Origin: an uncultured virus (IMG/VR IMGVR_UViG_3300043774_000843)
Taxonomy: Duplodnaviria; Heunggongvirae; Uroviricota; Caudoviricetes
Reading direction: 5' to 3' (one strand)
DNA: 20,000 nt
IMG/VR virus record: IMGVR_UViG_3300043774_000843
The notes under the pieces are model-generated. The model worked only from the letters and a program-made list of their open reading frames with translations. It was not told the origin of the DNA and did no database searches. Position 1 is the first letter of the stretch. Each line of letters opens with the position of its first letter. The translations under genes and the position numbers were made by a program. Positions 4,693 to 19,014 of this stretch are shown one piece after another.

Positions 4693-5049
4693 TTATTTTA
4701 AAGTTTCTAATAAATTAGCCCAAACAGAATTAGATTCTATTGTTCTTCCATTATCAATAATCAATTTTTTACCTCCATTTAGATAAGTACCCTTTTTTAA
4801 TGGTTCAGTAGATTTGTATTCTGCAATTATAAATCTATTATTAGGATAAAATTGTGCTTTATGTTTCTTTTCATTAAAAATTGCTTGAATCATGTCGCCT
4901 CTATCTAAGAAATTACCTAAATTACTTTTTAAATCATCGTAATTCTTAATTTCAGGTTTACCTTTTTTATATATAAAAAAGTAGTAAACTGCACCAATCA
5001 ATCCTAATGTTGATGCTACTATTAAAATTCCTTTAGTTTGTTTATTCAT
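4693..5049 (-). CDS. Hypothetical membrane protein with N-terminal TM
   Basis: 118 aa; GILIVASTLGLIGAVYYFFIYKK. Confidence 0.8.
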   Translation of the reverse strand: MNKQTKGILIVASTLGLIGAVYYFFIYKKGKPEIKNYDDLKSNLGNFLDRGDMIQAIFNEKKHKAQFYPNNRFIIAEYKSTEPLKKGTYLNGGKKLIIDNGRTIESNSVWANLLETLK

Positions 5050-5476
5050 AAGATTTTTTTTCTTCTGTGTAATAAGGTCTTAAAAAACATTTATTGTATT
5101 TTTTTCCATTTATGTAGTCATAAGGATATTTAGGCTCACGACCTAAAGCTATTCTCATATCTTCCATGCTCATTTCAACTACCGTTTCGCCTCCATGCTC
5201 AAATTTCTTTTTTAAATTATCGTCAGAATGTTTTTTATCATCTCTTGATTCGTGATAAATTTGTTTTACATCATCAGGATAATTACCATCGCTATCTTTT
5301 TTATATTTTTCAATTTCAGATTTCAATGGTCTTTTAAATCTTAATTTTTTACCTTTTTTATTTAAAGTTCCATCTTTTTTAGTAAGAGCATCAATTCCAT
5401 CTGTTTTGAAACGATAACCAGTTGGTTTTGCTTTTACTGCCTTATCTTTAGCACTTGCTTTTTTCTTCTTTGCCAT
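5042..5476 (-). CDS. Basic protein with one FxxGG motif and the shared C-terminal EPxYP...LRPYY domain
   Basis: 144 aa; Lys-rich N-terminus, KFEHGGET, then LGREPKYPYDYINGKKYNKCFLRPYY. Confidence 0.8.
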   Translation of the reverse strand: MAKKKKASAKDKAVKAKPTGYRFKTDGIDALTKKDGTLNKKGKKLRFKRPLKSEIEKYKKDSDGNYPDDVKQIYHESRDDKKHSDDNLKKKFEHGGETVVEMSMEDMRIALGREPKYPYDYINGKKYNKCFLRPYYTEEKKSYE

Positions 5477-5498
5477 TTTTATTTTGGGTTTTTGAAAA

Positions 5499-7670
5499 TT
5501 AAATTTTATAAAAATTTCTTAAATATGCTTTTTCTAAAACTAAACTACCTACAACTTGTTTTGGATAGTTTGGTTCATGTCCTAATATTTTTGTTAATTT
5601 ACAAATACAGATTTCGCCATTCTGTAAATTTTCACGAACTAACATTTCAGCAGATTTAGAAAATTCTTTTGATGCTGATTTTAAATCATCTTGGTATTCG
5701 ATTCCACCGCCTGTTTCTTTGTAGTATTCTTTAGGTTTAACTTCATAGTGTAATTTTAAATTTGGTTTATTTAATTTTACAGACAATATTTCCCTTTCTT
5801 TAATAGCTTCATAAGGTGTATTATGTATTGAAATAATTTTATTTGTTTTATTATCTATAACGTATGATATTGATGGCTTATATAACTGCCAACTTTCATC
5901 GTACTTTGCGTTGGGATTTCCAATAAACGTATCGCCTACTTTATAATTCCCAACCCCACCGCCATTGGCGTATCTTTTAGGAATTGTATCAAAATAATCT
6001 TGCATATAAGTTGCCATTCCATCTATGTAATATTCAAAACTATTATATCCATTTTTTTCTAATTTTGATATTTTAGAATAACCTCTTTTTATGCTTTTTG
6101 CAAATTCTTCTGCTTCTTTTAAATTATCTGTCCAAAAAGATTTTGATTTAGGGTTGTTTTCTAATTCATTTACATAACCTACCTGATATTTACTTATACC
6201 ATGACCAACCCCACCGCCATTGGCGTATTCCATAACTTCTGGAAATAAATCTAATCCTTTTTTTGTAAATTTCCATTTTGAAGTGTCAATATCTTCAATA
6301 GTATTCGCTTTTATTGTATTCCATCTATTCCCTAATACATCAACAATATTAATGTAAAATTTTCCCGTTTTTGGTTCAAAGTAGTAACTATTATCTTTAT
6401 ATTCAGCTATTAAAATTTTACTTTCAACCCCACCGCCATTTTTAAATCTCTTTAATTTCCAATTATAAAATTCATCTAATATGTATTTTTCAGCATTTTC
6501 CCAATCTTCGGGTACATTTTGTCCCCATTCAATTTCGTCATTCATCCTACTTGATGATGGTGCTTCAATAATATAACCATCATAATCAAGAATTGATGCG
6601 CCTTCGCTATCTTCTGTTTCAAAAGAGAAATCATAACGACCAAGCCTTCTATCTGTATTGTCAGAAAAATCAATATTTTTAATTATTTCCTTGTTTGACA
6701 AAACCATTCCTCCCATTTCATATCCATTATCGGCAAGGCTATAATAATTATCTGAATTAGGAACTAATATCATACTATCTAAAACTGTTACATTAAACAT
6801 TTTTAATGCAGTTTTAACTTGTTGATACAATTTAATATCTGCTTCGCTTGGTCTATTATTTCCGCTTGGGTGATTGTGTGCTAAAATTACACCTTTAGAT
6901 AATGTTTTTAAAGCTAAAGCGCCAATCATTTCAACATCAACTAAAGTTGCGTTAATTGCACCTTTTGTATGTTCATAATACCCTATTGGCTCATTTGCAT
7001 TGTTTAAAAACAACACATTCATTTCTTCACGAACATTTATACTTTCTTTATTCCAAAGTTGTTTGAAAATTTCGTAAGCATCTTTTGAACTACCAATTTT
7101 TGTTTTTTCAACACTAAAATCTTGACGAACAAGTGCAATATCAATAAGTGCAATATCAATTTCGCTAATCTTTTGATTATTAGGCTCATTTATAACAATA
7201 GGAGTTTCTGAACTTAAATCAGGATATTTCATTATTCCGCCAGTAGCAAATTTGTTTTTACTTGCTCTATTGCCAACTTTATAATCTAAATGGTGATATA
7301 AATTATCAATATCATTAGCAGATATAGCTAATTTATTTTCCTGCCATGACATTAACTTAGAACCGCCTTTAATCATTTCAATTAGCTTATTAGCATATTT
7401 TGAAATTGATAAAAGTTGCTTTTTAAATATCATTCCTCCCTCATCAAATTTTTCCCAGCCCTCTAATGAGTGTGCAACATCAGAAACATTTTGTTCAATA
7501 CGAGTAAGTTTCATCTTTACCCATTCTTCTAAATTACTTTCTTCGGTTACGATAATATCTAATTTAACAGCATACTCATAAATCATATCAAGATTTATTA
7601 ATGCCATTTTTTTATCAAAATCAAATACATCAAAAACTCCACCTAAATCGTATTTATCCCAATGTTTCAT
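5499..7670 (-). CDS. Modular protein with a RadC-like JAB domain, [YF]xxGG-delimited modules and the shared C-terminal domain
   Basis: 723 aa; JAB at ~6725-7100 (REEMNVLFLN...ILAHNHPSGNNRPSEADI); eight GG motifs; C-terminal LGHEPNYPKQ...KAYLRNFYKI. Confidence 0.85.
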   Translation of the reverse strand: MKHWDKYDLGGVFDVFDFDKKMALINLDMIYEYAVKLDIIVTEESNLEEWVKMKLTRIEQNVSDVAHSLEGWEKFDEGGMIFKKQLLSISKYANKLIEMIKGGSKLMSWQENKLAISANDIDNLYHHLDYKVGNRASKNKFATGGIMKYPDLSSETPIVINEPNNQKISEIDIALIDIALVRQDFSVEKTKIGSSKDAYEIFKQLWNKESINVREEMNVLFLNNANEPIGYYEHTKGAINATLVDVEMIGALALKTLSKGVILAHNHPSGNNRPSEADIKLYQQVKTALKMFNVTVLDSMILVPNSDNYYSLADNGYEMGGMVLSNKEIIKNIDFSDNTDRRLGRYDFSFETEDSEGASILDYDGYIIEAPSSSRMNDEIEWGQNVPEDWENAEKYILDEFYNWKLKRFKNGGGVESKILIAEYKDNSYYFEPKTGKFYINIVDVLGNRWNTIKANTIEDIDTSKWKFTKKGLDLFPEVMEYANGGGVGHGISKYQVGYVNELENNPKSKSFWTDNLKEAEEFAKSIKRGYSKISKLEKNGYNSFEYYIDGMATYMQDYFDTIPKRYANGGGVGNYKVGDTFIGNPNAKYDESWQLYKPSISYVIDNKTNKIISIHNTPYEAIKEREILSVKLNKPNLKLHYEVKPKEYYKETGGGIEYQDDLKSASKEFSKSAEMLVRENLQNGEICICKLTKILGHEPNYPKQVVGSLVLEKAYLRNFYKI

Positions 7671-7828
7671 TATTTTAATTTTTTAATTTCTTTCCAATGT
7701 TTAATTGCGCCTAATCCATAGAAAGCAATCATAGTAATTGATATAACGGTAGTCCAAGTAGCAATTTTACCCCAATTAAAATCCTTAATTGTGTCAATTA
7801 TACTGCTATCTTGTTCTTTTTTTTCCAT
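7670..7828 (-). CDS. Small membrane protein (52 aa)
   Basis: Hand-translated: MEKKEQDSSIIDTIKDFNWGKIATWTTVISITMIAFYGLGAIKHWKEIKKLK; TAATG overlaps at both ends. Confidence 0.8.
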   Translation of the reverse strand: MEKKEQDSSIIDTIKDFNWGKIATWTTVISITMIAFYGLGAIKHWKEIKKLK

Positions 7829-7977
7829 TATAGTTTACCCTCTTTTTTTAATTTAGCTGCACCTTGCTTAACCGCATCTGAATATTTCTTTACTTTTCCT
7901 GTCGCCCAAATAGCTTTTGCTTCTTTTTGAATCATTTCCATTCTTGACTTGTTTGCGTTTTTTGTTGATTTTGCCAT
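7828..7977 (-). CDS. Small basic protein (49 aa), possibly DNA-binding
   Basis: Hand-translated: MAKSTKNANKSRMEMIQKEAKAIWATGKVKKYSDAVKQGAAKLKKEGKL; A-rich leader; stop overlaps the next ATG. Confidence 0.75.
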   Translation of the reverse strand: MAKSTKNANKSRMEMIQKEAKAIWATGKVKKYSDAVKQGAAKLKKEGKL

Positions 7978-8066
7978 GATTTTTTGTTTTGGTTGTAAAT
8001 TTAACTAATTAACTACTATTTATTTAATTTAAAAACAATTTTATTTTTAAACATTCTTTCTAACAA

Positions 8067-8849
8067 TCAAGAGTTAGTGTACTCTTTTAGAATAGAAAAA
8101 TCAAAAGGTTTTACCGCTAATTCTTTTTGCCCCTTAAACATATTTTGCTTAAATGGACTTCCTACTGTATAATCATTCAATGCTAAATCTTTTTCACTCC
8201 ACTTTCTTAATTTGTTAGGGCAAAAACATGGAGCAGATGATAGCATATTTGATTTGTCTATTTGCTTGTAAATTAACAATAAACCTATTTCTGAATTTGC
8301 TTCTACAAAAAATTGCCTAAACCATTGATTAACTCCTAAAATACAATTAGCAGTATCAAAATTAACTTGCCCTATCCAATTTTGAAATTGATTTACTCCT
8401 ATTGATAAACTTGGAAATCTCGGTAAAATTCTTCTATTACCATTTGCATCTTTGTATAAATGCTGAATTACTTGATTTAAGTTTGGTTGATTTTTAGAAT
8501 AAAAATAAATTCTTCTTACCCAAGCAGGAGAATAAACAAAATCTCTTACTGTTTCGTTATAATCTTCGCTACCGCCAATCCAAAAAACAGGAGTTATAGG
8601 TGGAGGTAAAGGAGTAGGAGGTATTGGACTTCCTGAAACAATAGGTGGCTGAATATATCCATTAGGAGTATTCGGAACATTGTATTGTTCTACAACAAAA
8701 GGTTGAAATAAATCAAAATATACATCTGAACTTGTCGGGTTGTTAATAGTGAAAAGCATTTCATCGTAATCACCATCTAATCCGTATTTTTCAGCTACAC
8801 TTTTTTTAATTTTAACCTTTTCAATTTCAGGCTGCCAACAAGATTCCAC
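8067..8849 (-). CDS. Hypothetical beta-rich protein with a Pro-rich insert; candidate minor virion shell protein
   Basis: 260 aa from a GTG start; no TM. N-terminal segment is similar to the 1..986 protein. Insert PPIVSGSPIPPTPLPPPITP. Function is inferred. Confidence 0.7.
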   Translation of the reverse strand: MESCWQPEIEKVKIKKSVAEKYGLDGDYDEMLFTINNPTSSDVYFDLFQPFVVEQYNVPNTPNGYIQPPIVSGSPIPPTPLPPPITPVFWIGGSEDYNETVRDFVYSPAWVRRIYFYSKNQPNLNQVIQHLYKDANGNRRILPRFPSLSIGVNQFQNWIGQVNFDTANCILGVNQWFRQFFVEANSEIGLLLIYKQIDKSNMLSSAPCFCPNKLRKWSEKDLALNDYTVGSPFKQNMFKGQKELAVKPFDFSILKEYTNS

Positions 8850-8850
8850 A

Positions 8851-9681
8851 TTATTTTTTTAGTGATTGAGATGTCATTGTCTTATTTTCCAATTCCCCTG
8901 ATTCAAATTTTTTCATAAAGTCATCCAAAATCAAATATCTTTTTTTATTTAATTCGTTATTAGCACCTTTAAATACTTTTAGAAAAGCATATTGTGCCTC
9001 TATCATTGGATAGCCTAAAGATAAATAAATGTTTAGAGCATTAATATCAGCAGAAACTTCATCGCTAATTTCTCTGCCTATTTTTGGATTCATGTATTTA
9101 TGAGAAAATTCATGTAATAAAATAACTAACCTCATAGGAATACTATATTTTTCAAAATCTGATTTTGAAATTTCAATAATACCAGTATTATGTCCTATTC
9201 TTGCAGGTGTTGAAACATACTCTCCCGTTTTTCTATTTCTAATTTTGTTATAATAGTCAATGCAAAACTTACCATCATTAGAGCGATATATACTTGGTTT
9301 TCTATCTCCTGCCGAAATAACACTTGCATTTGCGGAAAATTCTTTTGCAAATTTCACGAAGTTATGAATGTCTTTATCCGCCCAAAGAGGGTATGTTTTT
9401 AATTCTTGTGCATCGAATTTAACAATTGAAAAAGATTTATCCTCATCATTTGGAGTATTTCCTTTTTTAGTATTGAAAATTGAAAAAACTAATAATCTTG
9501 GTGTTTGAGGGAATTTTAATTCATATTCCTGATAACCATTTACTGTTCCTTTTCTACTTATATAATAAGTATTTGGCTTACTAAAATCTTTTGCAACAAC
9601 ACTAATTTCTTCGGGAGATTTTGTTTCTATTCCTAAAATTATAGTAAAAGGCAATCCATTACTCGGTATAGTAAAATTCAT
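8851..9681 (-). CDS. Putative zinc metallopeptidase (HExxH...ExxAD, gluzincin-like)
   Basis: VILLHEFSHKY followed by DEVSADINAL; N-terminal beta-rich region. Confidence 0.75.
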   Translation of the reverse strand: MNFTIPSNGLPFTIILGIETKSPEEISVVAKDFSKPNTYYISRKGTVNGYQEYELKFPQTPRLLVFSIFNTKKGNTPNDEDKSFSIVKFDAQELKTYPLWADKDIHNFVKFAKEFSANASVISAGDRKPSIYRSNDGKFCIDYYNKIRNRKTGEYVSTPARIGHNTGIIEISKSDFEKYSIPMRLVILLHEFSHKYMNPKIGREISDEVSADINALNIYLSLGYPMIEAQYAFLKVFKGANNELNKKRYLILDDFMKKFESGELENKTMTSQSLKK

Positions 9682-9685
9682 TTTT

Positions 9686-10129
9686 TTATTTTCTTAATTT
9701 TTTAACTAAAAATATACCACCAACAACTAAAGCTAAACCACCAACAATTGCTACTGTAATTCCAACTGCTTTAGGCATACCTAAGAATTTATCACTAACT
9801 TGAATGTTTTCAGTTGGTATTTCTTCTTTTTTTCCCAATTCTGCTTTTTGTTTTTCCAACTCTGATTTTTGTCTTTCTAATTCAGAGTTAGATTCTCTAT
9901 CTTTTGATTTTTCCAAATCATACTTTTCTTGTACTTTTCTTGAACAATCTTCCCATTTTGTTTTTTTAGATTTTGAAAACCAAATCTTTCTTTTCTTTCC
10001 ACAATTAAATTGTATTAATCTTGCAACTTCATCTTTTCTACTGTCTTTTTTAGCAGAAGATTCAGCAATTTTACCTACTCCTTTTGAAGCAAATCCAACA
10101 CCCCTTGATATTAGTCCTACAATTGCCAT
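9686..10129 (-). CDS. Tail-anchored membrane protein, FLGMPK-anchor family (copy 1)
   Basis: 147 aa; CGKKRK...WEDC, coiled coil, DKFLGMPKAVGITVAIVGGLALVVGGIFLVKKLRK. Confidence 0.85.
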   Translation of the reverse strand: MAIVGLISRGVGFASKGVGKIAESSAKKDSRKDEVARLIQFNCGKKRKIWFSKSKKTKWEDCSRKVQEKYDLEKSKDRESNSELERQKSELEKQKAELGKKEEIPTENIQVSDKFLGMPKAVGITVAIVGGLALVVGGIFLVKKLRK

Positions 10130-10839
10130 TATTTTCTTAGTTTTTTAACTAAAAATATTCCACCAACAACTAAAGCTAAACCACCAACAACTGCTACCGT
10201 AATTCCAACTGCTTTAGGCATACCTAAGAATTTATCACTATCTTCCATTTTTCTACTTGTTGTGTCTATTCTTTGTCTTTCTAAATCTATTTTTTGTCTT
10301 TCTAAATCTATTTTTTGTTTTTCCAAATCTAATCCGCTTTCTTTACCTTGAGATTTTTCCAAATTGTATTTGTCTTGAACTTCTGAAATACATCTTTGAT
10401 ATGCTTTCTTTTTGTCGCCACATTTACCACCAAATACACATTTTGGTTTTTTACCGCATCTAAGTTTTGCTAATCTTTCTATTTCAAGTTTATTAGAATC
10501 TTTAGTTGCTGATGCTTGTGCTACTTTACCAATACCTTGTGCAGTATCTCCAACTCCTTTTGCAATTTGTCCTGCTTCCGCATTTGAATAATAATAATCC
10601 CCATTCGCACTTAAATAATATCCGTATGGAGTTGATTCATAAACTTCATTTCCTGCCATAAAATAATTAGGGACTACTGGATTTCTAAAGTTATTCATTT
10701 CATCAAACGCAGGGTATCTTGCCGAACCCCCAAAACTATCTTCTAATCTATCGCCTTGTGGCAATAAAGTTGGAACATAGTCCACTAAGTTTGAAAAACT
10801 TTGGTCTAATTTATTTGTATTTGTTAAATCTAACGCCAT
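10129..10839 (-). CDS. Tail-anchored membrane protein, FLGMPK-anchor family (copy 2); tandem paralog of 9686..10129
   Basis: 236 aa; the C-terminal ~145 aa align by eye with the whole neighbouring protein; heptads LEKQKID/LERQKID/LERQRID. Confidence 0.85.
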   Translation of the reverse strand: MALDLTNTNKLDQSFSNLVDYVPTLLPQGDRLEDSFGGSARYPAFDEMNNFRNPVVPNYFMAGNEVYESTPYGYYLSANGDYYYSNAEAGQIAKGVGDTAQGIGKVAQASATKDSNKLEIERLAKLRCGKKPKCVFGGKCGDKKKAYQRCISEVQDKYNLEKSQGKESGLDLEKQKIDLERQKIDLERQRIDTTSRKMEDSDKFLGMPKAVGITVAVVGGLALVVGGIFLVKKLRK

Positions 10840-10850
10840 GATTTTTTATT

Positions 10851-12788
10851 TTATACTAATTTATAATAAGGTCTTAAATAACATTTTTCGAGTTTAATTG
10901 CACCTACAATTTGATAAGGGTAATTAGGTTTGCAACCAATAATTTCAGTTAATTTTTCGCAAGATATTTCGCCATTGAAAAGATTTGATTTTACCATTTC
11001 TTCTATGCTATCCACTTTAATTGATTCTTTTCTTTTTTTCAATTCCTCTTTTAGAGTTTGAATATCATCTTCTGTATTTTCAAATCTTGAAAGATTAATA
11101 ATAGCATCTGTTAAAGCATCATTAGAGTATTCTGAAAAATTGCCAACCCCACCGCCATTAGCGTATTTATTTTTAAATTCTTTTTCAGCTTTTTTTATAG
11201 CATATTCAAATGTTTGTGCGCCTAAAACTCTACCCATAGGTTTGCCATTAATTGCAACTTCCCACATATCACTACCTCCAACTCTTTGAACAGAGATATT
11301 GTCTTTTTTGAAAACCTTATCTTTTGTAAAAGGTCGCTCAATCCCACCACCATTAGCGTATTCATCCATTTCTAAATTCTCATATATATCGTTTATATAG
11401 TATTTATTTTTATTTGCTATACTTAAATATGCTAATATATCTCCATTCTCAATAGCCCTAAAAACATATTCTCCTTTTACTATTTCTACAATATCTCTTA
11501 CGCTTGTTTCTAATATGTCGCCTCTATAACCTCTAAAATAAACTTTTACAACGGTTTCTCCATATATATCTTTTTTAGGATTAGTTAAAACTAAACCAAT
11601 AAGTCCTCTTGTCCCCTCATGTTTGGCAAATACTAAATCTCCCTTTTTTATGCCCATTGCAACCCCACCACCTTTTGCGTATTTCTTTCCGTTTTTAGCA
11701 TCTTCTAAAAGAATATTAATATTTTCTCTTGAAGTTTCTATATCTCCATCACCATCACTACCCATATCATTATCAACTTCAAATTGTTCTTGCAAAACAT
11801 CTTCTTTTTGTTCTTTTGATAATTTTTGGTATATGTTATATGCTTCAATAGATTGGTCTTGTAGCATTTCCAATAATTTCAATTTCCAGTTAAAATCATC
11901 ATTAATGAAATTAGATTTTGCATATAAATCATTTATCTTGTTTTCAATTTCTCCTCCATCTCTATACCAATCGCCAAACCAACCCTCTTTTTTGTATTCT
12001 TTCCATTCACGCTTTCTTTTATATTTTTGTTCGTGTGGTTCTTGCGACTTGAACAAATTATCTCTGCCTGAATTTATTCCACCGCCTTTAGCGTATGTTC
12101 CTTTTTCATAAAAATCAATATCAATTACTTTTTGCATATTTTCATTTGGATATACTCCTACATCAAACATTTTTCCTACAAAATAATTACGAGCTTGTTC
12201 TTCGGTTGTAGTTGAGCTTACATTAGTTTCATAATTATATTTTGAGTCTGCGAATTTAACTCTTACCATTCCTAAAGATTTAGTGTAGTCATTCATTTCG
12301 CCTCCATTTTCGTATTCTTCAAAATCCTTTAATTGATTTAAAGATAACTCAATAGGTCTTAATCCATAAGGTTCTGCATCTAAACCATAATCAAAAGTAT
12401 AACCTAATTGTTCTAAATCTCCTTCTAATTTTTTTAGGTTATCATAATCCCATTCATTTCCACCCATTTCGTAATACATATTAAAAATAGATGAAACATT
12501 TTCAGGCATTAATTCATAATATTGAAATAAATCAACAAATTGAGAATCTACCATTCTATTTAAAACAGCATTTTTAATGCTTTCGGGAACGCTATCTAAT
12601 TTAGTTCCTAAATGTTCGCCCATTTCAACTTCTGTATAATCTCCAATATACTGATTAAATCCCTCTCCACCCTCACTCATTCCATAAACCGCCCCATCAG
12701 GAGTAAAAACGGTATATCTATCGTAAGTTTCTCCGTTATTATCATAAACTTTCGTTATTTCTAATATTCTTTTATCGAGATTATTCAT
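10851..12788 (-). CDS. Modular protein with YxxGG-delimited modules and the shared C-terminal domain
   Basis: 645 aa; YENGG, YAKGG, YRDGG, YAKGG, YANGG, YANGG; C-terminal IGCKPNYPYQ...KCYLRPYYKLV. Confidence 0.85.
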   Translation of the reverse strand: MNNLDKRILEITKVYDNNGETYDRYTVFTPDGAVYGMSEGGEGFNQYIGDYTEVEMGEHLGTKLDSVPESIKNAVLNRMVDSQFVDLFQYYELMPENVSSIFNMYYEMGGNEWDYDNLKKLEGDLEQLGYTFDYGLDAEPYGLRPIELSLNQLKDFEEYENGGEMNDYTKSLGMVRVKFADSKYNYETNVSSTTTEEQARNYFVGKMFDVGVYPNENMQKVIDIDFYEKGTYAKGGGINSGRDNLFKSQEPHEQKYKRKREWKEYKKEGWFGDWYRDGGEIENKINDLYAKSNFINDDFNWKLKLLEMLQDQSIEAYNIYQKLSKEQKEDVLQEQFEVDNDMGSDGDGDIETSRENINILLEDAKNGKKYAKGGGVAMGIKKGDLVFAKHEGTRGLIGLVLTNPKKDIYGETVVKVYFRGYRGDILETSVRDIVEIVKGEYVFRAIENGDILAYLSIANKNKYYINDIYENLEMDEYANGGGIERPFTKDKVFKKDNISVQRVGGSDMWEVAINGKPMGRVLGAQTFEYAIKKAEKEFKNKYANGGGVGNFSEYSNDALTDAIINLSRFENTEDDIQTLKEELKKRKESIKVDSIEEMVKSNLFNGEISCEKLTEIIGCKPNYPYQIVGAIKLEKCYLRPYYKLV

Positions 12789-12843
12789 TTATTTATTTTT
12801 TTATAAAATTAAAAAAAGTAACTAATATAAATTAGTAAAATAA

Positions 12844-13707
12844 TTATTTTCTTAGTTTTTTTACTAAAAATATTCCACCAACAACTAAAGCTAATCCACC
12901 AACAACTGCTACTGTAATTCCAATTGCTTTAGGCATACCTAAGAATTTATCATTGATAGTTTTAATTTCTTTTTCTATTGTTTTTTCAATATTAGATTTA
13001 TCAATAGTTTCAGAATCTTTTTCTTTTACATCAGACTTATCTGATTTTTTAGGAGTTAATCCTTCTAAACTTTTAACTGATTTTGGTATAGAAACAGATG
13101 TAACTGTCGCTTTAGGCTGCGTACTTGCAGTAACAACATTAGGTGCAACTGTTGTATTTACAGGAGCAGTTACAGGCTTTGGAATAGGAGCTAAACCTTT
13201 GGCTTGTAATTTTAATTGAGCAAGTCCTCCTGATTTTTTAAATTCTCTCCATTTCTTTCTCCAACCCCATTTAATTATACCTTTGTTTGTAGCCCTACAT
13301 TTCTCCCAAGATTCTATATTTTTTCTTTGTTCTGCTCTTTTAACAGCTTGATTTCTATTAGTCGCACAACAATCTTTATTGTAGTTTTTAGATTTTGAAC
13401 AATCCCAAAGACATATCACATTAGGGTATTTAATATCTGGATTTAATGGTTTGATACCACATTCCCCAATAGATATTTTAGCTTTACCATATTGCGCTTT
13501 AAGTTCTAATTTTTTATTTTTAACTAAAGCTCTATACTTTGGTAATTCTTCCTCTGAAACGCCTTCCTCATCTGATGGTTCGGAATCAGTATTTTCTTCA
13601 TCCTCATATTCTTTATCATCTTCGCCATCCGCACTGGAATAAACACCATTAGTGTTTAATATGCTTTCATCAAGACCATCTGCATTTAATAATTCTAAAT
13701 CTCTCAT
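12844..13707 (-). CDS. Tail-anchored membrane protein, FLGMPK-anchor family (copy 3), Cys-rich
   Basis: 287 aa; acidic N-terminus with NADG/SADG, CGIKP...WEKC, T/P/V-rich linker, anchor. Confidence 0.85.
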   Translation of the reverse strand: MRDLELLNADGLDESILNTNGVYSSADGEDDKEYEDEENTDSEPSDEEGVSEEELPKYRALVKNKKLELKAQYGKAKISIGECGIKPLNPDIKYPNVICLWDCSKSKNYNKDCCATNRNQAVKRAEQRKNIESWEKCRATNKGIIKWGWRKKWREFKKSGGLAQLKLQAKGLAPIPKPVTAPVNTTVAPNVVTASTQPKATVTSVSIPKSVKSLEGLTPKKSDKSDVKEKDSETIDKSNIEKTIEKEIKTINDKFLGMPKAIGITVAVVGGLALVVGGIFLVKKLRK

Positions 13708-13739
13708 TTTTAAAAAAATTTTGTTAATAAATTATTTAT

Positions 13740-13765
13740 TGCTCACCTTATTAACAAGGCGAGCA
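13740..13765. terminator. Intergenic stem-loop, possible intrinsic terminator or RNA stability element
   Basis: Minus strand TGCTCGCCTT-GTTAAT-AAGGTGAGCA gives a 10-bp stem with one G-U pair. The T-rich tail is on the plus-strand side, so the direction is ambiguous. Confidence 0.5.
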
Positions 13766-13809
13766 TTTTATATTTTATTGTAAATCAAACAATTATACTA
13801 TATTAATAT

Positions 13810-13995
13810 TTATTTTGGAATGTTTGTCCATCCTTTTCCTTGTAGCCAATCTAAACAAGGTTTATTTGAACGGTTTTTGTTACAAACTTCTCCTGCTGCA
13901 TTTGATTTGGTTTCTCCCTTAGATTTTTTCCATAAGTAGTAACCTATACCTGCTACTGCTACTGCTCCTAATCCGATTAATAAATTTTTTTTCAT
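13810..13995 (-). CDS. Small membrane protein with N-terminal TM and two Cys
   Basis: 61 aa; LLIGLGAVAVAGIGYYLWKK, then SNAAG and C-x8-C. Confidence 0.8.
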   Translation of the reverse strand: MKKNLLIGLGAVAVAGIGYYLWKKSKGETKSNAAGEVCNKNRSNKPCLDWLQGKGWTNIPK

Positions 13996-14027
13996 AATTT
14001 TTACTTTTTAATTGTTTTTATTGTTTT

Positions 14028-15017
14028 TTATTTTCTTAATTTTTTAACTAAAAATATTCCACCAACGATTAATGCTAAACCGCCTACAATTGCTACCGTA
14101 ATTCCAATTGCTTTAGGCATACCTAAGAATTTATCTTCTGCATCATCGCTATCATCTTCTTCTTTTGATTTATCTGTCGCACCACCTGCATCATCTTCTG
14201 AGGCTGTTTTTTCAACTTCGTTTATAATATCATTATTTGCTTCTGATTCAGATGGCTCGTTACCTGCATCTTCTTTTTTATCACTATCAAATTCTTTACC
14301 ATCGGGAGAGCCTTCTTCAAAAGGATTTTCATCAGCTCCCTCTTTTTTAAATACACCTTTAAGCCATGCGAAAAATGCTCTAATTCCTTTTACTTCTTCT
14401 TCTTGCGAAGGAACTTCTTCTACATCTCCTTCGGCAGATAATGTTCCCTCTACATAACTATATTCATCACCATCTTGACTATAATAAATATTACAATCAG
14501 GTGCAAAATATGAATAGAAATCTAAACCATTATTCCCATCTGCTGATTTATAAGGCATTTTTAAAAATCTTTTTTTACTGCCCTCTATAATTGCATTTTT
14601 AATTTCATCTTCGCTGCCTCCAAGATTTTTCCACTTAGAAACTAATTTACTATAAATAGATTTAGAAGAATTAACGAATTTAGCCTTGTATTTTCTTTGT
14701 TTTACAACATCAGTATTACCAACAGCAGGATATAATTTAGATGCTACACCATGAATATTATTTTTAATATTAAATAATATTCCTTTTCTCATAACTCTAC
14801 GGAAATTGTTACGAAAATTCTTACCTGCTTTACCTACTTTATCTTTTAAATTAGTAGTTACCTTTTTTATTTTGTCCTTAATTTTATCTTTACCTTTTTT
14901 AATCTTATCCTTGATTTTATCTTTGCCTTTTTTGAATTTATCTCTTAGCTTTTTTCCAATAGCATCAGAATATTCTTCTCCCAAAAGGTCTGAATTTATT
15001 AAATCTAAATCTTCCAT
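14028..15017 (-). CDS. Tail-anchored membrane protein, FLGMPK-anchor family (copy 4); basic N-half, acidic C-half
   Basis: 329 aa; KKGKDKIKDKI twice; D/E-rich region; anchor. Confidence 0.85.
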   Translation of the reverse strand: MEDLDLINSDLLGEEYSDAIGKKLRDKFKKGKDKIKDKIKKGKDKIKDKIKKVTTNLKDKVGKAGKNFRNNFRRVMRKGILFNIKNNIHGVASKLYPAVGNTDVVKQRKYKAKFVNSSKSIYSKLVSKWKNLGGSEDEIKNAIIEGSKKRFLKMPYKSADGNNGLDFYSYFAPDCNIYYSQDGDEYSYVEGTLSAEGDVEEVPSQEEEVKGIRAFFAWLKGVFKKEGADENPFEEGSPDGKEFDSDKKEDAGNEPSESEANNDIINEVEKTASEDDAGGATDKSKEEDDSDDAEDKFLGMPKAIGITVAIVGGLALIVGGIFLVKKLRK

Positions 15018-15037
15018 TTTATTTATTTTTAATTAAT

Positions 15038-15562
15038 TTATTTTCTTATTTTTTTTACTAAAAATATTCCACCAACTATTAAAGCTAAACCACCAACAAC
15101 TGCTACTGTAATTCCAATTGCTTTAGGCATACCTAAGAATTTAGCTGATTCTTCTTTTTCAGGTGCTAATCTTTCTGTGCTTGGTGGTGGAGGTGCTGTT
15201 TCAGTTTTTGTTTCTGATTTTATAACATTTTGAGTGCAAGTTTCATATTTTTCTCTCCTTTTTTTACCTGCTTTCCCTAAAGACAAAACACCAATAGGTT
15301 TTCTGCCACAAACTGATTTAATCTTTTGTTCAATTTCTGATTTAGGTTTACCTTTTATTAAACCTGCTGCAATACTAGTAGCTTGTTTTACTAATTCAGG
15401 ATTTTCTTTAGCAAATTCACCTACTTTTTTAGCAGCTTCAGCTGCATCACCATTTGAAAAATTTTCTCCATTTGCTCCACAGCAATATGAATAATTATCC
15501 CCGATAGCATTTGAAATACTTTCGTCAAGACCATTAGCGTTTAATAATTCTAAATCTACCAT
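15038..15562 (-). CDS. Tail-anchored membrane protein, FLGMPK-anchor family (copy 5)
   Basis: 174 aa; MVDLELLNANGLDESI resembles the start of 12844..13707; CGRKP...YETC; anchor. Confidence 0.85.
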   Translation of the reverse strand: MVDLELLNANGLDESISNAIGDNYSYCCGANGENFSNGDAAEAAKKVGEFAKENPELVKQATSIAAGLIKGKPKSEIEQKIKSVCGRKPIGVLSLGKAGKKRREKYETCTQNVIKSETKTETAPPPPSTERLAPEKEESAKFLGMPKAIGITVAVVGGLALIVGGIFLVKKIRK

Positions 15563-15590
15563 TTTTTTTTATTTTAATTAATTTTTGTTT

Positions 15591-16031
15591 TTAAACTTTT
15601 GTAGTTGCCGAAACATTTGGATTTATTGATGAACTACTTGTTGCACCACCATTTGTTCCTGCTCCTCCCCCTATGCTTATTGTTTTTTTGTTATTTAAAA
15701 GTTTTTTATATAATAAATATCCTCCAACAGCCAAAGTTATTCCTACAATACCATAAAATAATAAAGGCTTCATTCCTAATATTTTATCGTCTTTTTCTTC
15801 CTCTTTTTGTTCAAGCCTTTTTGAAAAAGATTGTTTTTCAAAGTTTGGAGTTTCGTAAGATTCATTTTCTTCTTCATCTTCAATTACCTTTTCAACATCT
15901 TCTTTTATTGGTTGAGGATTTTTAGCTCTTTGTGCTGTTTTTTGAATCCTTTCAGTTTTTAAAGAATTTTTTAAATTACTACTATTTGATACTGTTTCGT
16001 CAAGTAGATTTGCATTTGCTAATTGTGTCAT
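15591..16031 (-). CDS. Membrane protein with a divergent KILGM-type anchor
   Basis: 146 aa; DKILGMKPLLFYGIVGITLAVGGYLLYKK. Confidence 0.8.
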   Translation of the reverse strand: MTQLANANLLDETVSNSSNLKNSLKTERIQKTAQRAKNPQPIKEDVEKVIEDEEENESYETPNFEKQSFSKRLEQKEEEKDDKILGMKPLLFYGIVGITLAVGGYLLYKKLLNNKKTISIGGGAGTNGGATSSSSINPNVSATTKV

Positions 16032-16061
16032 TTGTCTTTGATTTGTTTTTGGTTTATTTAT

Positions 16062-16547
16062 TTATTTCACTATATTGGTTAAAATATCAGCTAATCTATT
16101 TATTATTACATCATAGAATACTTTAAAATCAAATTCTGAAACTTTATAATTTAATAGTATAGCCTTTTTTGTTTTAATATCAGCATTTTCATCCCACTTT
16201 TTATCTTTCTTTGCTAATAGAACTCCATTAATTACTTTGAATACTCTTTCTTTATCAGCATCAGATAATTTTGCTAAATCAATAATTCTTAAATAATTAT
16301 CAACTTCTAATTCTGAATTTACATCTTTTGATAAATCTTTTAAATATTGAGCATCAATAACTTTTTCTTTATTTTTAATACTTAATCCGATTAATCCTAA
16401 AGAACCTAACACTGCCCCGATTCCGCCACCTATTAATAAGGTTTTAGTTAGGTCTAAATTTTTGTTTTTACCTAATGTTTTAATATATAGGTATGATAAA
16501 CCCAATCCTGCTAAAACACCATATATAGGTAATAGATTCTTGTTCAT
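16062..16547 (-). CDS. Membrane protein with N-terminal Gly-rich TM hairpin
   Basis: Start moved to ATG 16547 (MNKNLLPIYGVLAGLGLSYL), just after the upstream stop at 16549; the longer track start overlaps the upstream gene. Confidence 0.8.
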   Translation of the reverse strand: MNKNLLPIYGVLAGLGLSYLYIKTLGKNKNLDLTKTLLIGGGIGAVLGSLGLIGLSIKNKEKVIDAQYLKDLSKDVNSELEVDNYLRIIDLAKLSDADKERVFKVINGVLLAKKDKKWDENADIKTKKAILLNYKVSEFDFKVFYDVIINRLADILTNIVK

Positions 16548-16548
16548 T

Positions 16549-17868
16549 TTATTGAATATTAAGTTTAGATAAAGTAGCTGAAATGTCAAGTGAATATTTT
16601 TTATTTATTTCTTGAATCTTTGCATTTACTTTTTCATTGAATTTTGCAACATCTTGTGAATTTTTTAATGAACTCATTAAGCCATTTTGATATTTTATCA
16701 TTTCAACAACAGCTTGTTTTTCATTATTATTAAAAGCTAATAAAATTTCTTTTAATTTTTTAATTATTTCAGGTTTTTTAGCACCTATTTGTGCATCAAA
16801 ATCTTTTTTTGTTTTATTTACATCTTGCCCAGTAGCTACTGCCATAGCAACAAAATTATTTTTAGCATTTTCAATTAGAGTATCGGCTATTTTATCGTCA
16901 TTACTTGCAGAACTACCTCCTTTAAATTTATTAAAGGCATAACCTAAACCTCCACCAATACCTGCACCTAATAAACTAAACGCTAAAATATTTTTACTAT
17001 TCTTTTTAGCATAAAAATATCCTGCAATACCTCCTATAATTAATAAAATATTAAAAGGATTAGCTATATCAAATGAAATTTTTTTTGTTTCAATTACAGG
17101 TGCAACTGTTTCAGATTCTAATTGCTTTTGAGCATCTTCTCCTCCTCCATTTTCTTCCTCATTTTCAGGTGAAGCTCCACCGCCTCCGCCACCGCCACCA
17201 GCAGCTCCTCCACCGCCTCCACCCCCTGATGGCGCAGATGGTGCAGATGGTGCGATAGGTGCAGCAATAGCAGGTAATGCTATTGCAGGTGTTAATACGA
17301 CAGGAGTAACTGATGGTGTTATTGCAGGTCTTGGTGATATATTTTCAGTTGTGTTTCTTTTTGGTGTAATAGAGGCTAATGTACCAGTAGGAGTTCCGAA
17401 ACTAATATTACCCAAATTTATACTTGGCGTTGAAATAGCGGTTTCGGTAACTGTACCTAAAGTTGAAGTTCCCCCTCTTGGAGTTGTTGTTCCTCTTGGG
17501 GTTGTTGATATAGGCGCAGTTTCAGTTGCGCTAAAAATTGTTCCGCCTCTCGGTGTTGTAGTTCCTCTTGGTGTCGTTGATACAGGCACAGTTTCAGTTG
17601 CGCTAAAAATTGTTCCACCTCTCGGTGTTGTAGTTCCTCTTGGGGTTGTTGATATAGGCGCAGTTTCAGTTGCGCTAAAAATTGTTCCACCTCTCGGTGT
17701 TGTAGTTCCTCTTGGGGTTGTTGCAGGAGGTGATGTTTTAACAAAAACAGTTTTTGGAGCAACAACTCTTTGCTGAACAATACCTCTTGCATTAGAGAAC
17801 TTTTGCCTTACATATCTTGTTGTTATTGGCGAATTTTCGATAATATCGCCATTTGTTAAATCTAACAT
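16549..17868 (-). CDS. Low-complexity Thr/Pro/Gly-rich membrane protein with TM hairpin and helical C-terminal domain
   Basis: 439 aa; 24-aa tandem repeats, AP-rich and poly-Gly segments; ILLIIGGIAGYFYA and ILAFSLLGAGIGGGLGYAF. Confidence 0.85.
   Translation of the reverse strand: MLDLTNGDIIENSPITTRYVRQKFSNARGIVQQRVVAPKTVFVKTSPPATTPRGTTTPRGGTIFSATETAPISTTPRGTTTPRGGTIFSATETVPVSTTPRGTTTPRGGTIFSATETAPISTTPRGTTTPRGGTSTLGTVTETAISTPSINLGNISFGTPTGTLASITPKRNTTENISPRPAITPSVTPVVLTPAIALPAIAAPIAPSAPSAPSGGGGGGGAAGGGGGGGGASPENEEENGGGEDAQKQLESETVAPVIETKKISFDIANPFNILLIIGGIAGYFYAKKNSKNILAFSLLGAGIGGGLGYAFNKFKGGSSASNDDKIADTLIENAKNNFVAMAVATGQDVNKTKKDFDAQIGAKKPEIIKKLKEILLAFNNNEKQAVVEMIKYQNGLMSSLKNSQDVAKFNEKVNAKIQEINKKYSLDISATLSKLNIQ
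17467..17721 (-). repeat. 72-bp coding tandem repeat, about 3.5 copies
   Basis: Unit TTPRGTTTPRGGTIFSATETAPIS; copies are near-identical in DNA. Confidence 0.95.
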
Positions 17869-17883
17869 AATACTTTTTATTAA

Positions 17884-19014
17884 TTATTTTTTTCTCATAG
17901 CAACTATAACAATAACAGAAGTAAGTGCAAGAACTCCAACAGTTACAATTCCAAAAGTTATTGGCGACATACCTAATATTTTAACTTCTTTTTCTCCTTT
18001 TTCATCAACTCCTTTATCAGTTGAATCTGATTTTTCTTTATCAGCATCTTCTTTTTTATCGTCTTTTTTTGCTAATAATACAGTTGCAACATCAAGTGCT
18101 GCTTTTGTAAATTCTTTAACTCCACCTGAACTTAACCACTCTCTTAATGGTTTTTTACTTCCACTTTCTTTGTGAGCCTCTACGATAACTTTAGCTTCAA
18201 CTATATCAGTTTGAGGATTTGCAATAACTTCCGAAGCCTTTTTATCAGATTTATTTTTTTTGTTGAAAGTTTTTTTAAACCAATCCCCTATTCCGTTAGA
18301 ATAATCTTCACCGTCAGCATTTAACAAACTTGTATTTTCTGTTAAGCCATCTAATAAACTTTCATTAATTAAATTAGAGTATTCCCCATCTGCATTTAAC
18401 AAACTTGTGTTTTCAGTTAATCCATCCAATAAACTTTCATTTATTAAATTAGAATGTTTTTCTAAAATACTATCATCAAGTCCACTTGCGTTTGATAAGT
18501 CAAGACCATCAGCTCCATATTTATTCATTGCTGCATTTATGTCATCAAGTCCTGTGAAATTAGAAGCAATTGGCATTTCATCTTTAATTCCAAATCTCTT
18601 TTTAGCTTTTTCAAGCGCACCTGAATAATATCCTTTACCTTCTTTTTTTACAACATCAACGAAGAATGGCTGAACTTTATCTCCATCAATAAATTTGTTT
18701 GCTAATCCACCTTTTTCAATTAATTGTAAGTATTTTTTTGGCTCTCCTAAAGGTTTACCTTTTTCATCTCTATTGATATAAAAAACCATACTTCCTTGAA
18801 TTTCTTCCAATTTATTAACGTAATTATCATCAAAAGAATTACCTTTTTTAGCTAATTGCATTTTTCTTGGTCTTGTCCCAACTAATTCAAAAATAGTTAA
18901 TTCTTGTTGTGGCGACCATAGATTATCAGTTGCAGATAAATTCCCTGAAACTATATCACGTTTAGCTTCACTTGATTTCATTTTAAGATATTCTTCTTTA
19001 GACATTAATTTCAT
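17884..19014 (-). CDS. Tail-anchored membrane protein with a divergent KILGM anchor and repeated NADG motifs
   Basis: 376 aa; KILGMSPITFGIVTVGVLALTSVIVIVAMRKK. Confidence 0.85.
   Translation of the reverse strand: MKLMSKEEYLKMKSSEAKRDIVSGNLSATDNLWSPQQELTIFELVGTRPRKMQLAKKGNSFDDNYVNKLEEIQGSMVFYINRDEKGKPLGEPKKYLQLIEKGGLANKFIDGDKVQPFFVDVVKKEGKGYYSGALEKAKKRFGIKDEMPIASNFTGLDDINAAMNKYGADGLDLSNASGLDDSILEKHSNLINESLLDGLTENTSLLNADGEYSNLINESLLDGLTENTSLLNADGEDYSNGIGDWFKKTFNKKNKSDKKASEVIANPQTDIVEAKVIVEAHKESGSKKPLREWLSSGGVKEFTKAALDVATVLLAKKDDKKEDADKEKSDSTDKGVDEKGEKEVKILGMSPITFGIVTVGVLALTSVIVIVAMRKK
18307..18453 (-). repeat. 75-bp coding tandem duplication
   Basis: SNLINESLLDGLTENTSLLNADGE occurs twice, with synonymous DNA differences. 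Confidence 0.9.

Follow-up and report, generated by a model that had tools for sequence, protein, structure and literature searches.

The head proteases of the phages T4 (gp21) and phiKZ (gp175) act on one consensus that is present on the capsid leader and on packaged internal proteins, and they cut after Glu in heads with the HK97 fold. Adenain of adenovirus and pS273R of African swine fever virus (ASFV) are Ulp1-like proteases of clan CE, and the adenain consensus is (M/I/L)-x-G-G with a hydrophobic residue at P4. In polyvalent proteins (Iyer et al. 2017, PMC5512222), unrelated domains are strung together into large mosaic chains. According to the parts of that article used here, the Dar proteins of P1 are processed and packaged, and zincins were proposed as the processing enzymes of polyvalent proteins. 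We analyzed a stretch of 20,000 nt from an uncultured virus (IMG/VR record IMGVR_UViG_3300043774_000843; the window), in which three proteins of 723, 645 and 144 amino acids (aa) carry the motif [YF]xxGG, here called the tag. An original prediction had taken them for polyproteins that are cut into separate effectors and are possibly packaged. Our comparison showed that the tag marks module borders and that modules are gained, lost and swapped there, a point absent from the original prediction. The tag is quite likely a protease site. With a little more reserve, we favor the reading that the tags are virion-maturation cut sites on packaged cargo of the polyvalent type and double as shuffling joints. 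The principle is already known from tailed phages and polyvalent proteins; in a literature search that covered mainly freely available articles, we found no account of a tag ending in Gly, of the candidate metalloprotease, of swaps at the strain level or of the virus lineage.

The three open reading frames (ORFs) were confirmed on the minus strand, and their coordinates were correct. The 723-aa protein (5499..7670), analyzed by ORF, homologue and segment comparison, consists of an 11-aa leader, two helical modules, a RadC/JAB module, four more modules and a C-terminal module. Its seven sites span 5958..7652 and begin at residues 7 (7638-7652), 75 (7434-7448), 141 (7236-7250), 317 (6708-6722), 409 (6432-6446), 482 (6213-6227) and 567 (5958-5972). 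All seven had been listed before, together with YKETGG (5706-5723), which is a variant one residue too long for the pattern. The 645-aa protein (10851..12788), of which a sister strain has a 711-aa version with one module less and another one added, also has seven sites (span 11151..12473), at residues 106 (12459-12473), 159 (12300-12314), 232 (12081-12095), 275 (11952-11966), 370 (11667-11681), 477 (11346-11360) and 542 (11151-11165). Six of them had been named; YEMGG at residue 106 had been overlooked. By its sequence context this site is probably internal to a module: phrog_37263 covers aa 76-146, and homologous modules of 71-73 aa run across it. In the 723-aa protein, MIKGG (aa 99-103) likewise lies within a conserved module. 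The 144-aa protein (5042..5476) has a basic N-terminal part, a single site, FEHGG (5189-5203), and a C-terminal module of about 50 aa that ends all three proteins (5502..5648 in the 723-aa protein, minus strand; paralogues at 10854-11003 and 5063-5209). This shared module is a candidate targeting tag.

Gly-rich fibre proteins, which the pattern matched through composition, were excluded. The counts of 7, 7 and 1 in the 723-, 645- and 144-aa proteins compare with shuffle means of 0.34, 0.64 and 0.05. None of 20000 shuffles reached seven sites for either large protein; the single site of the 144-aa protein was reached in 988 of 20000 and is by itself not significant. In each large protein, seven of nine Gly-Gly runs had Y or F three residues upstream.

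With the 723-aa protein as query, 135 matches were obtained. Counts on homologues rest on 120 of these, a set skewed toward proteins with the first two modules of the query; the two helical modules are common to about 100 of them. The 120 proteins contained 782 [YF]xxGG sites against 53 expected, and Y, F or M stood three places before Gly-Gly in 834 of 1135 runs. The family consensus is (K)[YFM][AK][NKDE]GGx[VI], and the form used for module joints is (K)-[YFM]-[AK]-[NKDE]-G-[G/A]. When the homologues were cut at the motif, 1006 segments with a median length of 74 aa resulted (module medians 74-81 aa), which fell into 266 clusters in mosaic orders. Matches between segments spanned at least 70% of both partners in 25467 of 28456 cases. 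Only 1 of 25 Pfam matches in 50 scanned homologues and the query contained a site (22 expected), and this site was at the edge of an over-extended match. In tagged proteins of related genomes the number was 0 of 13 (4.9 expected), giving 1 of 38 against 27 expected for the pooled test. Sites flank LPD11, peptide deformylase, RadC and DUF7659 on both sides. The motifs therefore lie between domain-sized modules, as had been proposed, and both doubts raised with the original prediction, that they might fall inside folded domains or be no more frequent than composition predicts, were not borne out.

Disparate domains thus follow each other in mosaic order on one polypeptide, and the genes lie within the virion gene block, in line with the proposed modular, cargo-like polyproteins. 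Modules with an assignment in tagged chains are RadC, GNAT, RelA/SpoT, beta-clamp, SprT-like, ART-PolyVal, peptide deformylase, LPD11, strawberry-notch helicase and topoisomerase IB, while PBECR5 and LPD1 occur in adjoining singly tagged proteins of relatives; most modules are without family assignment. The repertoire overlaps with that given for polyvalent proteins in the consulted parts of PMC5512222 (in relatives, tagged chains or their tagged neighbours contain RadC, ART-PolyVal, PBECR5, LPD1, LPD11, strawberry-notch helicase, GNAT and SprT-like domains), and the large mosaic chains of unrelated domains are alike. From the typical polyvalent set of RadC, MPTase, ART, PBECR, LPDs and SF2 helicase, the 723-aa protein has RadC, and the others were found in relatives only. 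Unlike polyvalent proteins, for which the main-text passages of PMC5512222 mention no such tag, the chains described here have a fixed tag at nearly every joint. Most of their modules are also very small and have no assignment, the candidate zincin is encoded by a gene of its own, and the virus is apparently of the jelly-roll type.

The record nearest to the window, G002 (73.6 kb), has DNA identity of 95-99% across shared blocks. It was one of eight long records compared (G002-G007, G014:C16 of 375 kb and G015:C131 of 148.5 kb); the related virus records are incomplete. In the 711-aa version of the 645-aa protein in G002, aa 370-476 are missing and 173 extra residues are present. Both changes start and finish in motifs, and the crossovers fall where 7 and 5 bases of the motif codons are shared. 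The missing 107-codon module (11361..11681, minus strand; crossover in the 7 shared bases) is also absent from a contig of sequencing run X5, which skips 11355-11677 (321 bases; 7 fit either side), and a contig of run X3 has about 500 additional bases at 11143-11156, where G002 has its insertion too. The window stretch is carried by 20 runs, 16 of them labeled as lake water and none of them listed as an RNA dataset; four, including X3 and X5, were compared in detail. Within the two polyprotein genes, four of nine joints have both ends in motifs, three of these with short sides (20-40 letters).

The codon spelling of the motif was variable, with 78 different 15-nt forms among 101 sites. Y, F and M interchange at the motif, and G007 has Ala for the second Gly. 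We concluded that the motif is constrained as protein. The first Gly was spelled GGC at 39 of 101 sites against a background of 12%. These data bear on the alternative that the tag does no more than link the modules flexibly and provide a joint for recombination, in which case the modules would stay joined and the motif would spread through crossovers in short shared motif-codon DNA that preserve frame and folds. The crossovers within 5-7 shared bases, the four joints with both ends in motifs and the over-used spelling GGCGGT are in agreement with it, and some polyvalent proteins travel uncut, as described in the part of PMC5512222 used here. But a linker needs no fixed aromatic residue or Met three residues ahead of the Gly pair, the motif has 78 spellings among 101 sites, and a related tag is present on capsid leaders and membrane proteins, which are not module-shuffled. 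We consider this alternative unlikely.

The related tag, x-A-x-G, was found in the acidic leaders of a capsid-candidate family of related viruses. In 68 leaders with less than 70% identity, [YFM]AxGG occurred 6 times (0.6 expected) and [YFMNSG]AxG 62 times (15.2 expected, maximum of 27 in 1000 shuffles), with spellings such as YANG, FADGG and MATGG. In the window, the membrane-anchored protein block (10129..19014, minus strand), in which most ORFs have hydrophobic anchors, contains 12 x-A-x-G tags against 2.5 expected over 12 ORFs tested, for example at 13675-13686, 13624-13635, 14535-14546, 15530-15541, 18385-18396 and 18310-18321. The count in this block exceeded the shuffle maximum in the window and in four of seven genomes, and in non-structural genes it was at or under expectation in all seven. 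The first form of this second motif, [YF]S[NSY]A, was discarded, as it showed no genome-wide enrichment. A short consensus on capsid leader and cargo resembles T4 and phiKZ, with the difference that here x-A-x-G is enriched in leaders and plain [YFM]xxGG is not. Furthermore, the tag ends in Gly/Ala, no terminase was found above the cut-off on five virus contigs from incomplete records, and the model of the capsid candidate is a jelly roll.

The presence of related tags on membrane and capsid proteins, together with a regular spacing near 70 aa, would also fit a repeated, uncut signal that binds a scaffold, the inner face of the membrane or an ejection channel. Single tags after leaders of 5-11 residues or at the end of acidic capsid leaders resemble removal sites instead, and a targeting role in the three window proteins is already suited by the separate C-terminal module, so that a binding signal appears improbable to us.

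JAB enzymes cut after Gly-Gly, and the RadC-like JAB module of the 723-aa protein (aa 146-321; 6708..7235, minus strand) sits in a Gly-Gly-tagged chain and retains its metal ligands (E216, H265, H267, S275, D278). Its RadC/JAB match (aa 193-316, E 5e-30) falls between FATGG (7236-7250) and YEMGG (6708-6722), as had been recognized in the original prediction. Cutting of the chains after entry, by this embedded domain or by a host protease, is nevertheless very improbable, since the JAB cluster has only 11 members among the 120 homologues, scans of tagged proteins from G003-G007, G014 and G015 did not reveal the module, and RadC-type JABs are argued, in the consulted part of PMC5512222, to be without the ubiquitin-tail groove.

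In the maturation reading that we prefer, the 723-, 645- and 144-aa proteins would be cargo precursors, strings of small independent modules joined by the tag, and the tag would be cut by a protease. Since a similar tag is present on the capsid leader of relatives, this is probably a viral protease. The same enzyme would strip the acidic capsid leader and trim membrane proteins at x-A-x-G, so that cutting would be part of particle maturation. The precursors would be loaded into the particle, some of them via the shared C-terminal module, and then be cut into single modules. Once released, the modules would serve at an early stage of infection to counter host defence and take over the cell. As enzyme we propose the neighbouring conserved zincin. 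Our confidence falls from the protease site to a shared maturation protease, further to packaging and release, and is lowest for the zincin as the enzyme. Any crossover between two tags would give an in-frame chain that is still correctly cut, and the payload could thus be changed without new promoters or targeting signals.

The proposed enzyme is a conserved 276-aa protein (8851..9681, minus strand) with a beta-sandwich (aa 1-94) and a zincin-type metalloprotease domain (HEFSH at 9100-9114, E208). H190, E191, H194 and E208 were invariant in 80 sequences. The structure model (predicted local distance difference test, pLDDT, 90.7) had M48 peptidases among its top fold matches (BepA: Z 7.5, root-mean-square deviation 4.5, 121 aligned residues), and the HExxH helix, the downstream Glu ligand and the zincin fold are those of a gluzincin. 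The gene is a core gene and lies between the membrane-protein block and the cargo genes. A search for homologues gave 429 proteins, through which we arrived at 21 viral loci and retained 80 metagenome loci. Of the latter, 41 were inspected; locus L007 was dropped as a spurious match inside a tailed-phage contig. Tagged chains were directly downstream of the zincin in the four closest viral loci. Among 20 other viral loci that contain the zincin, four had tagged polyproteins less than 10 kb from it, plus one 222-aa protein. In G007 they were 20-35 kb away and had the G-A variant of the tag, and in G007, G014 and G015 the tagged chains clustered beyond an ATPase gene. Of 25 metagenome loci with at least 6 kb downstream, 14 had tagged proteins, with L104 doubtful and the proteins of L066 and L067 the same. 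Sequence and model make the zincin the best candidate for the tag-cutting enzyme, an assignment that we rate slightly below even. Two more partial matches to the zincin profile were present on the 375-kb contig (G014:C16:22906-23205 and 278583-278708).

The enzyme type suggested in the original prediction, that of adenovirus and ASFV, found no support. The profiles PF02902 and PF00770 for adenain/Ulp1-like proteases gave no match in five related, incomplete records, in which the C5 control gave no signal either. No clan CE protease was found in 465 ORF scans of related records, and a pattern search for this clan gave nothing in six genomes. Gly-Gly-type sites in precursors of a jelly-roll virus resemble adenain and pS273R, if the cleavage inferred here takes place. 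Unlike the adenain consensus, however, the hydrophobic residue would be at P5 and not at P4 if the cut is after Gly-Gly; relative to the Gly pair it stands three places before, and A, K or E comes next. No C5/C48 match was obtained in the records searched, and the host markers are bacterial (SLT, amidase, DnaB) and not eukaryotic. A Ulp1-like maturation protease was acquired after the tectivirus stage, as described in the part of PMC4405056 used here, so a zincin in the maturation role would be a separate solution. A permuted papain-like protein of family C92 was present in G003, G004, G005 and G007; no homologue was found in G002, and it was therefore set aside as general enzyme.

Several observations weigh against the maturation reading. 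Plain [YFM]xxGG was not enriched in capsid leaders (10 against 5.4 expected, shuffle maximum 12), and the two tags may therefore have different enzymes. The x-A-x-G patterns were formulated after inspection of the sequences. The domains in the border test include homologues that are repeated in the counts and are thus not independent. The over-use of GGC at the first Gly means that DNA copying also maintains the motif. The shared C-terminal module was found in only 26 of the 120 homologues. N4 vRNAP, ArdC and TraC1, which bear MPTase, are packaged or transferred uncut according to the consulted part of PMC5512222. Fold Z-scores were middling (up to 7.5 for the zincin, up to 6.2 for the capsid candidate). 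Six of the eight genomes were retrieved via the zincin (G014 and G015 via the capsid), so its presence there is partly due to selection. Finally, Uroviricota is the taxon that the Atlas assigns automatically to the zincin clusters, and the ATPase of relatives weakly matches a PHROG named terminase (E 4.5e-5).

We place the window in the virion gene block of a bacterial virus that is large, uncultured and probably tailless. Contigs of the lineage have 74-375 kb, and only three gene clusters were found in all eight genomes: an anchored LEA_2-like protein, the capsid-candidate family and the 276-aa protein. The capsid candidate is not encoded in the window itself; in G003 and G004 its gene lies about 10 kb upstream from that of the zincin. 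The model of the candidate has one confident jelly-roll barrel (aa 81-240) behind a disordered acidic leader. Top fold matches were jelly rolls, many from viral shells, with Z-scores too low to fix the lineage. From its conservation and position we infer a major-capsid role for this family, and sequence and models together suggest a tailless single-jelly-roll virus. Searching with the capsid first gave 18 viral contigs, 17 of them already known via the zincin; the alignments came from zincin-selected loci. The 260-aa protein of the window (8067..8849, minus strand) is a paralogue of the putative single-jelly-roll capsid protein (87% probability) and may be a minor capsid protein or spike base. 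It was rejected as major capsid protein, as it is a paralogous domain that is also fused to beta-propellers. Neither the 260-aa protein nor the capsid profile matched a solved structure by sequence, Foldseek gave no match with E≤0.001 for either model, and the Atlas gave no usable match for the capsid candidate.

Upstream in G007 and G014, outside the window, there is an ATPase of about 280 aa with a Walker A motif, whose matches to DUF87/HerA were below the cut-off (E 7e-4 in G007, 3e-4 in G014). Together with Walker A, these weak HerA matches point to a packaging ATPase of the FtsK/HerA type in relatives. Terminase_6N gave no match on five virus contigs, and Pfam scans of the related genomes revealed no head or portal family, in both cases in incomplete records. 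Like Singelaviria (PRD1/PM2/FLiP-like viruses), the lineage has a single jelly-roll candidate with paralogues, a HerA-like ATPase of this size and many membrane-anchored proteins; unlike them, its contigs are far larger and no solved capsid was matched by sequence. The Odin group was dropped from comparison, since it has genomes of 7-11 kb, a double jelly roll and no ATPase according to the consulted part of PMC5894146. The host markers, SLT and OmpA in the window and amidase, DnaB and a DnaA-type helix-turn-helix domain in relatives, point to a bacterial host. Two of four metagenome-assembled genomes (MAGs) with the capsid gene belong to Bacteroidota, which is weak host evidence.

Taken further, a widespread lineage of large tailless single-jelly-roll bacterial viruses might rely for particle maturation on a zinc metalloprotease. 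This enzyme would recognize a single Gly-ending tag shared by capsid leader, membrane proteins and cargo, and the same tag would be the joint for swapping hundreds of small, mostly unknown effector modules. This would be convergent with adenovirus/giant-virus and T4/phiKZ maturation but based on another enzyme class. We hold this wider picture to be possible, though rather doubtful. If true, it would mean that large tailless bacterial viruses, too, mature and deliver cargo with the help of a protease, and that this protease is a metalloprotease. The tag would provide a rule for excising hundreds of small candidate anti-defence and take-over proteins for screening (266 segment clusters from 120 proteins), and a protease tag that doubles as in-frame recombination joint, as seen between strains, would be a simple evolutionary device. 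The capsid and zincin families, which had no match in 50,697 phage records, may serve as markers for a virus group without cultured member in the collection searched.

The capsid-candidate family (L050:11671-12495; P0241-P0390) has 722 representatives at 50% identity. An N-terminal membrane anchor replaces the acidic leader in many paralogues (31 of 120), and a 699-aa protein of G014 contains repeated copies of the capsid-candidate domain. Contig G014:C16 (L168-L187), 375 kb from a Bacteroidota MAG, has a uniform GC content of 30-33% and virus-like genes throughout, and no end repeats were found on this contig. It carries the capsid candidate, the ATPase, the zincin and tagged proteins of up to 3006 aa, and by gene content is possibly a jumbo tailless virus. 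Members of the lineage are also filed in giant-virus, Parvularculaceae and Woesearchaeota MAGs (L020, L161, L162), probably through misbinning. Genes for a sulfotransferase, adenosine phosphosulfate (APS) kinase and a glycosyltransferase beside the capsid gene of relatives (L039:7249-9471, L194) suggest surface modification.

Within the virion block of the window, a membrane-anchored OmpA domain (2201-2725) and an SLT transglycosylase (1372-2028) are encoded, the latter with homologues in seven of eight genomes. A basic 49-aa ORF upstream of the 723-aa gene (7828-7977), kept in the sister strain, is possibly a DNA-condensing protein. At 7684-7867 the window has a 52-aa membrane ORF, where the sister strain and an X3 contig instead carry about 970 different bases; these encode a 321-aa ORF that resembles the GIY-YIG endonucleases of the lineage. 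Five membrane proteins (9686-15562) share a near-identical terminal anchor, KFLGMPKA...KKLRK, with DNA identity of 88-96% over about 110 bases, which suggests recent duplication or exchange. Repeated TTPRGGT units at 17351-17792 belong to a 439-aa membrane protein rich in Thr, Pro and Gly.

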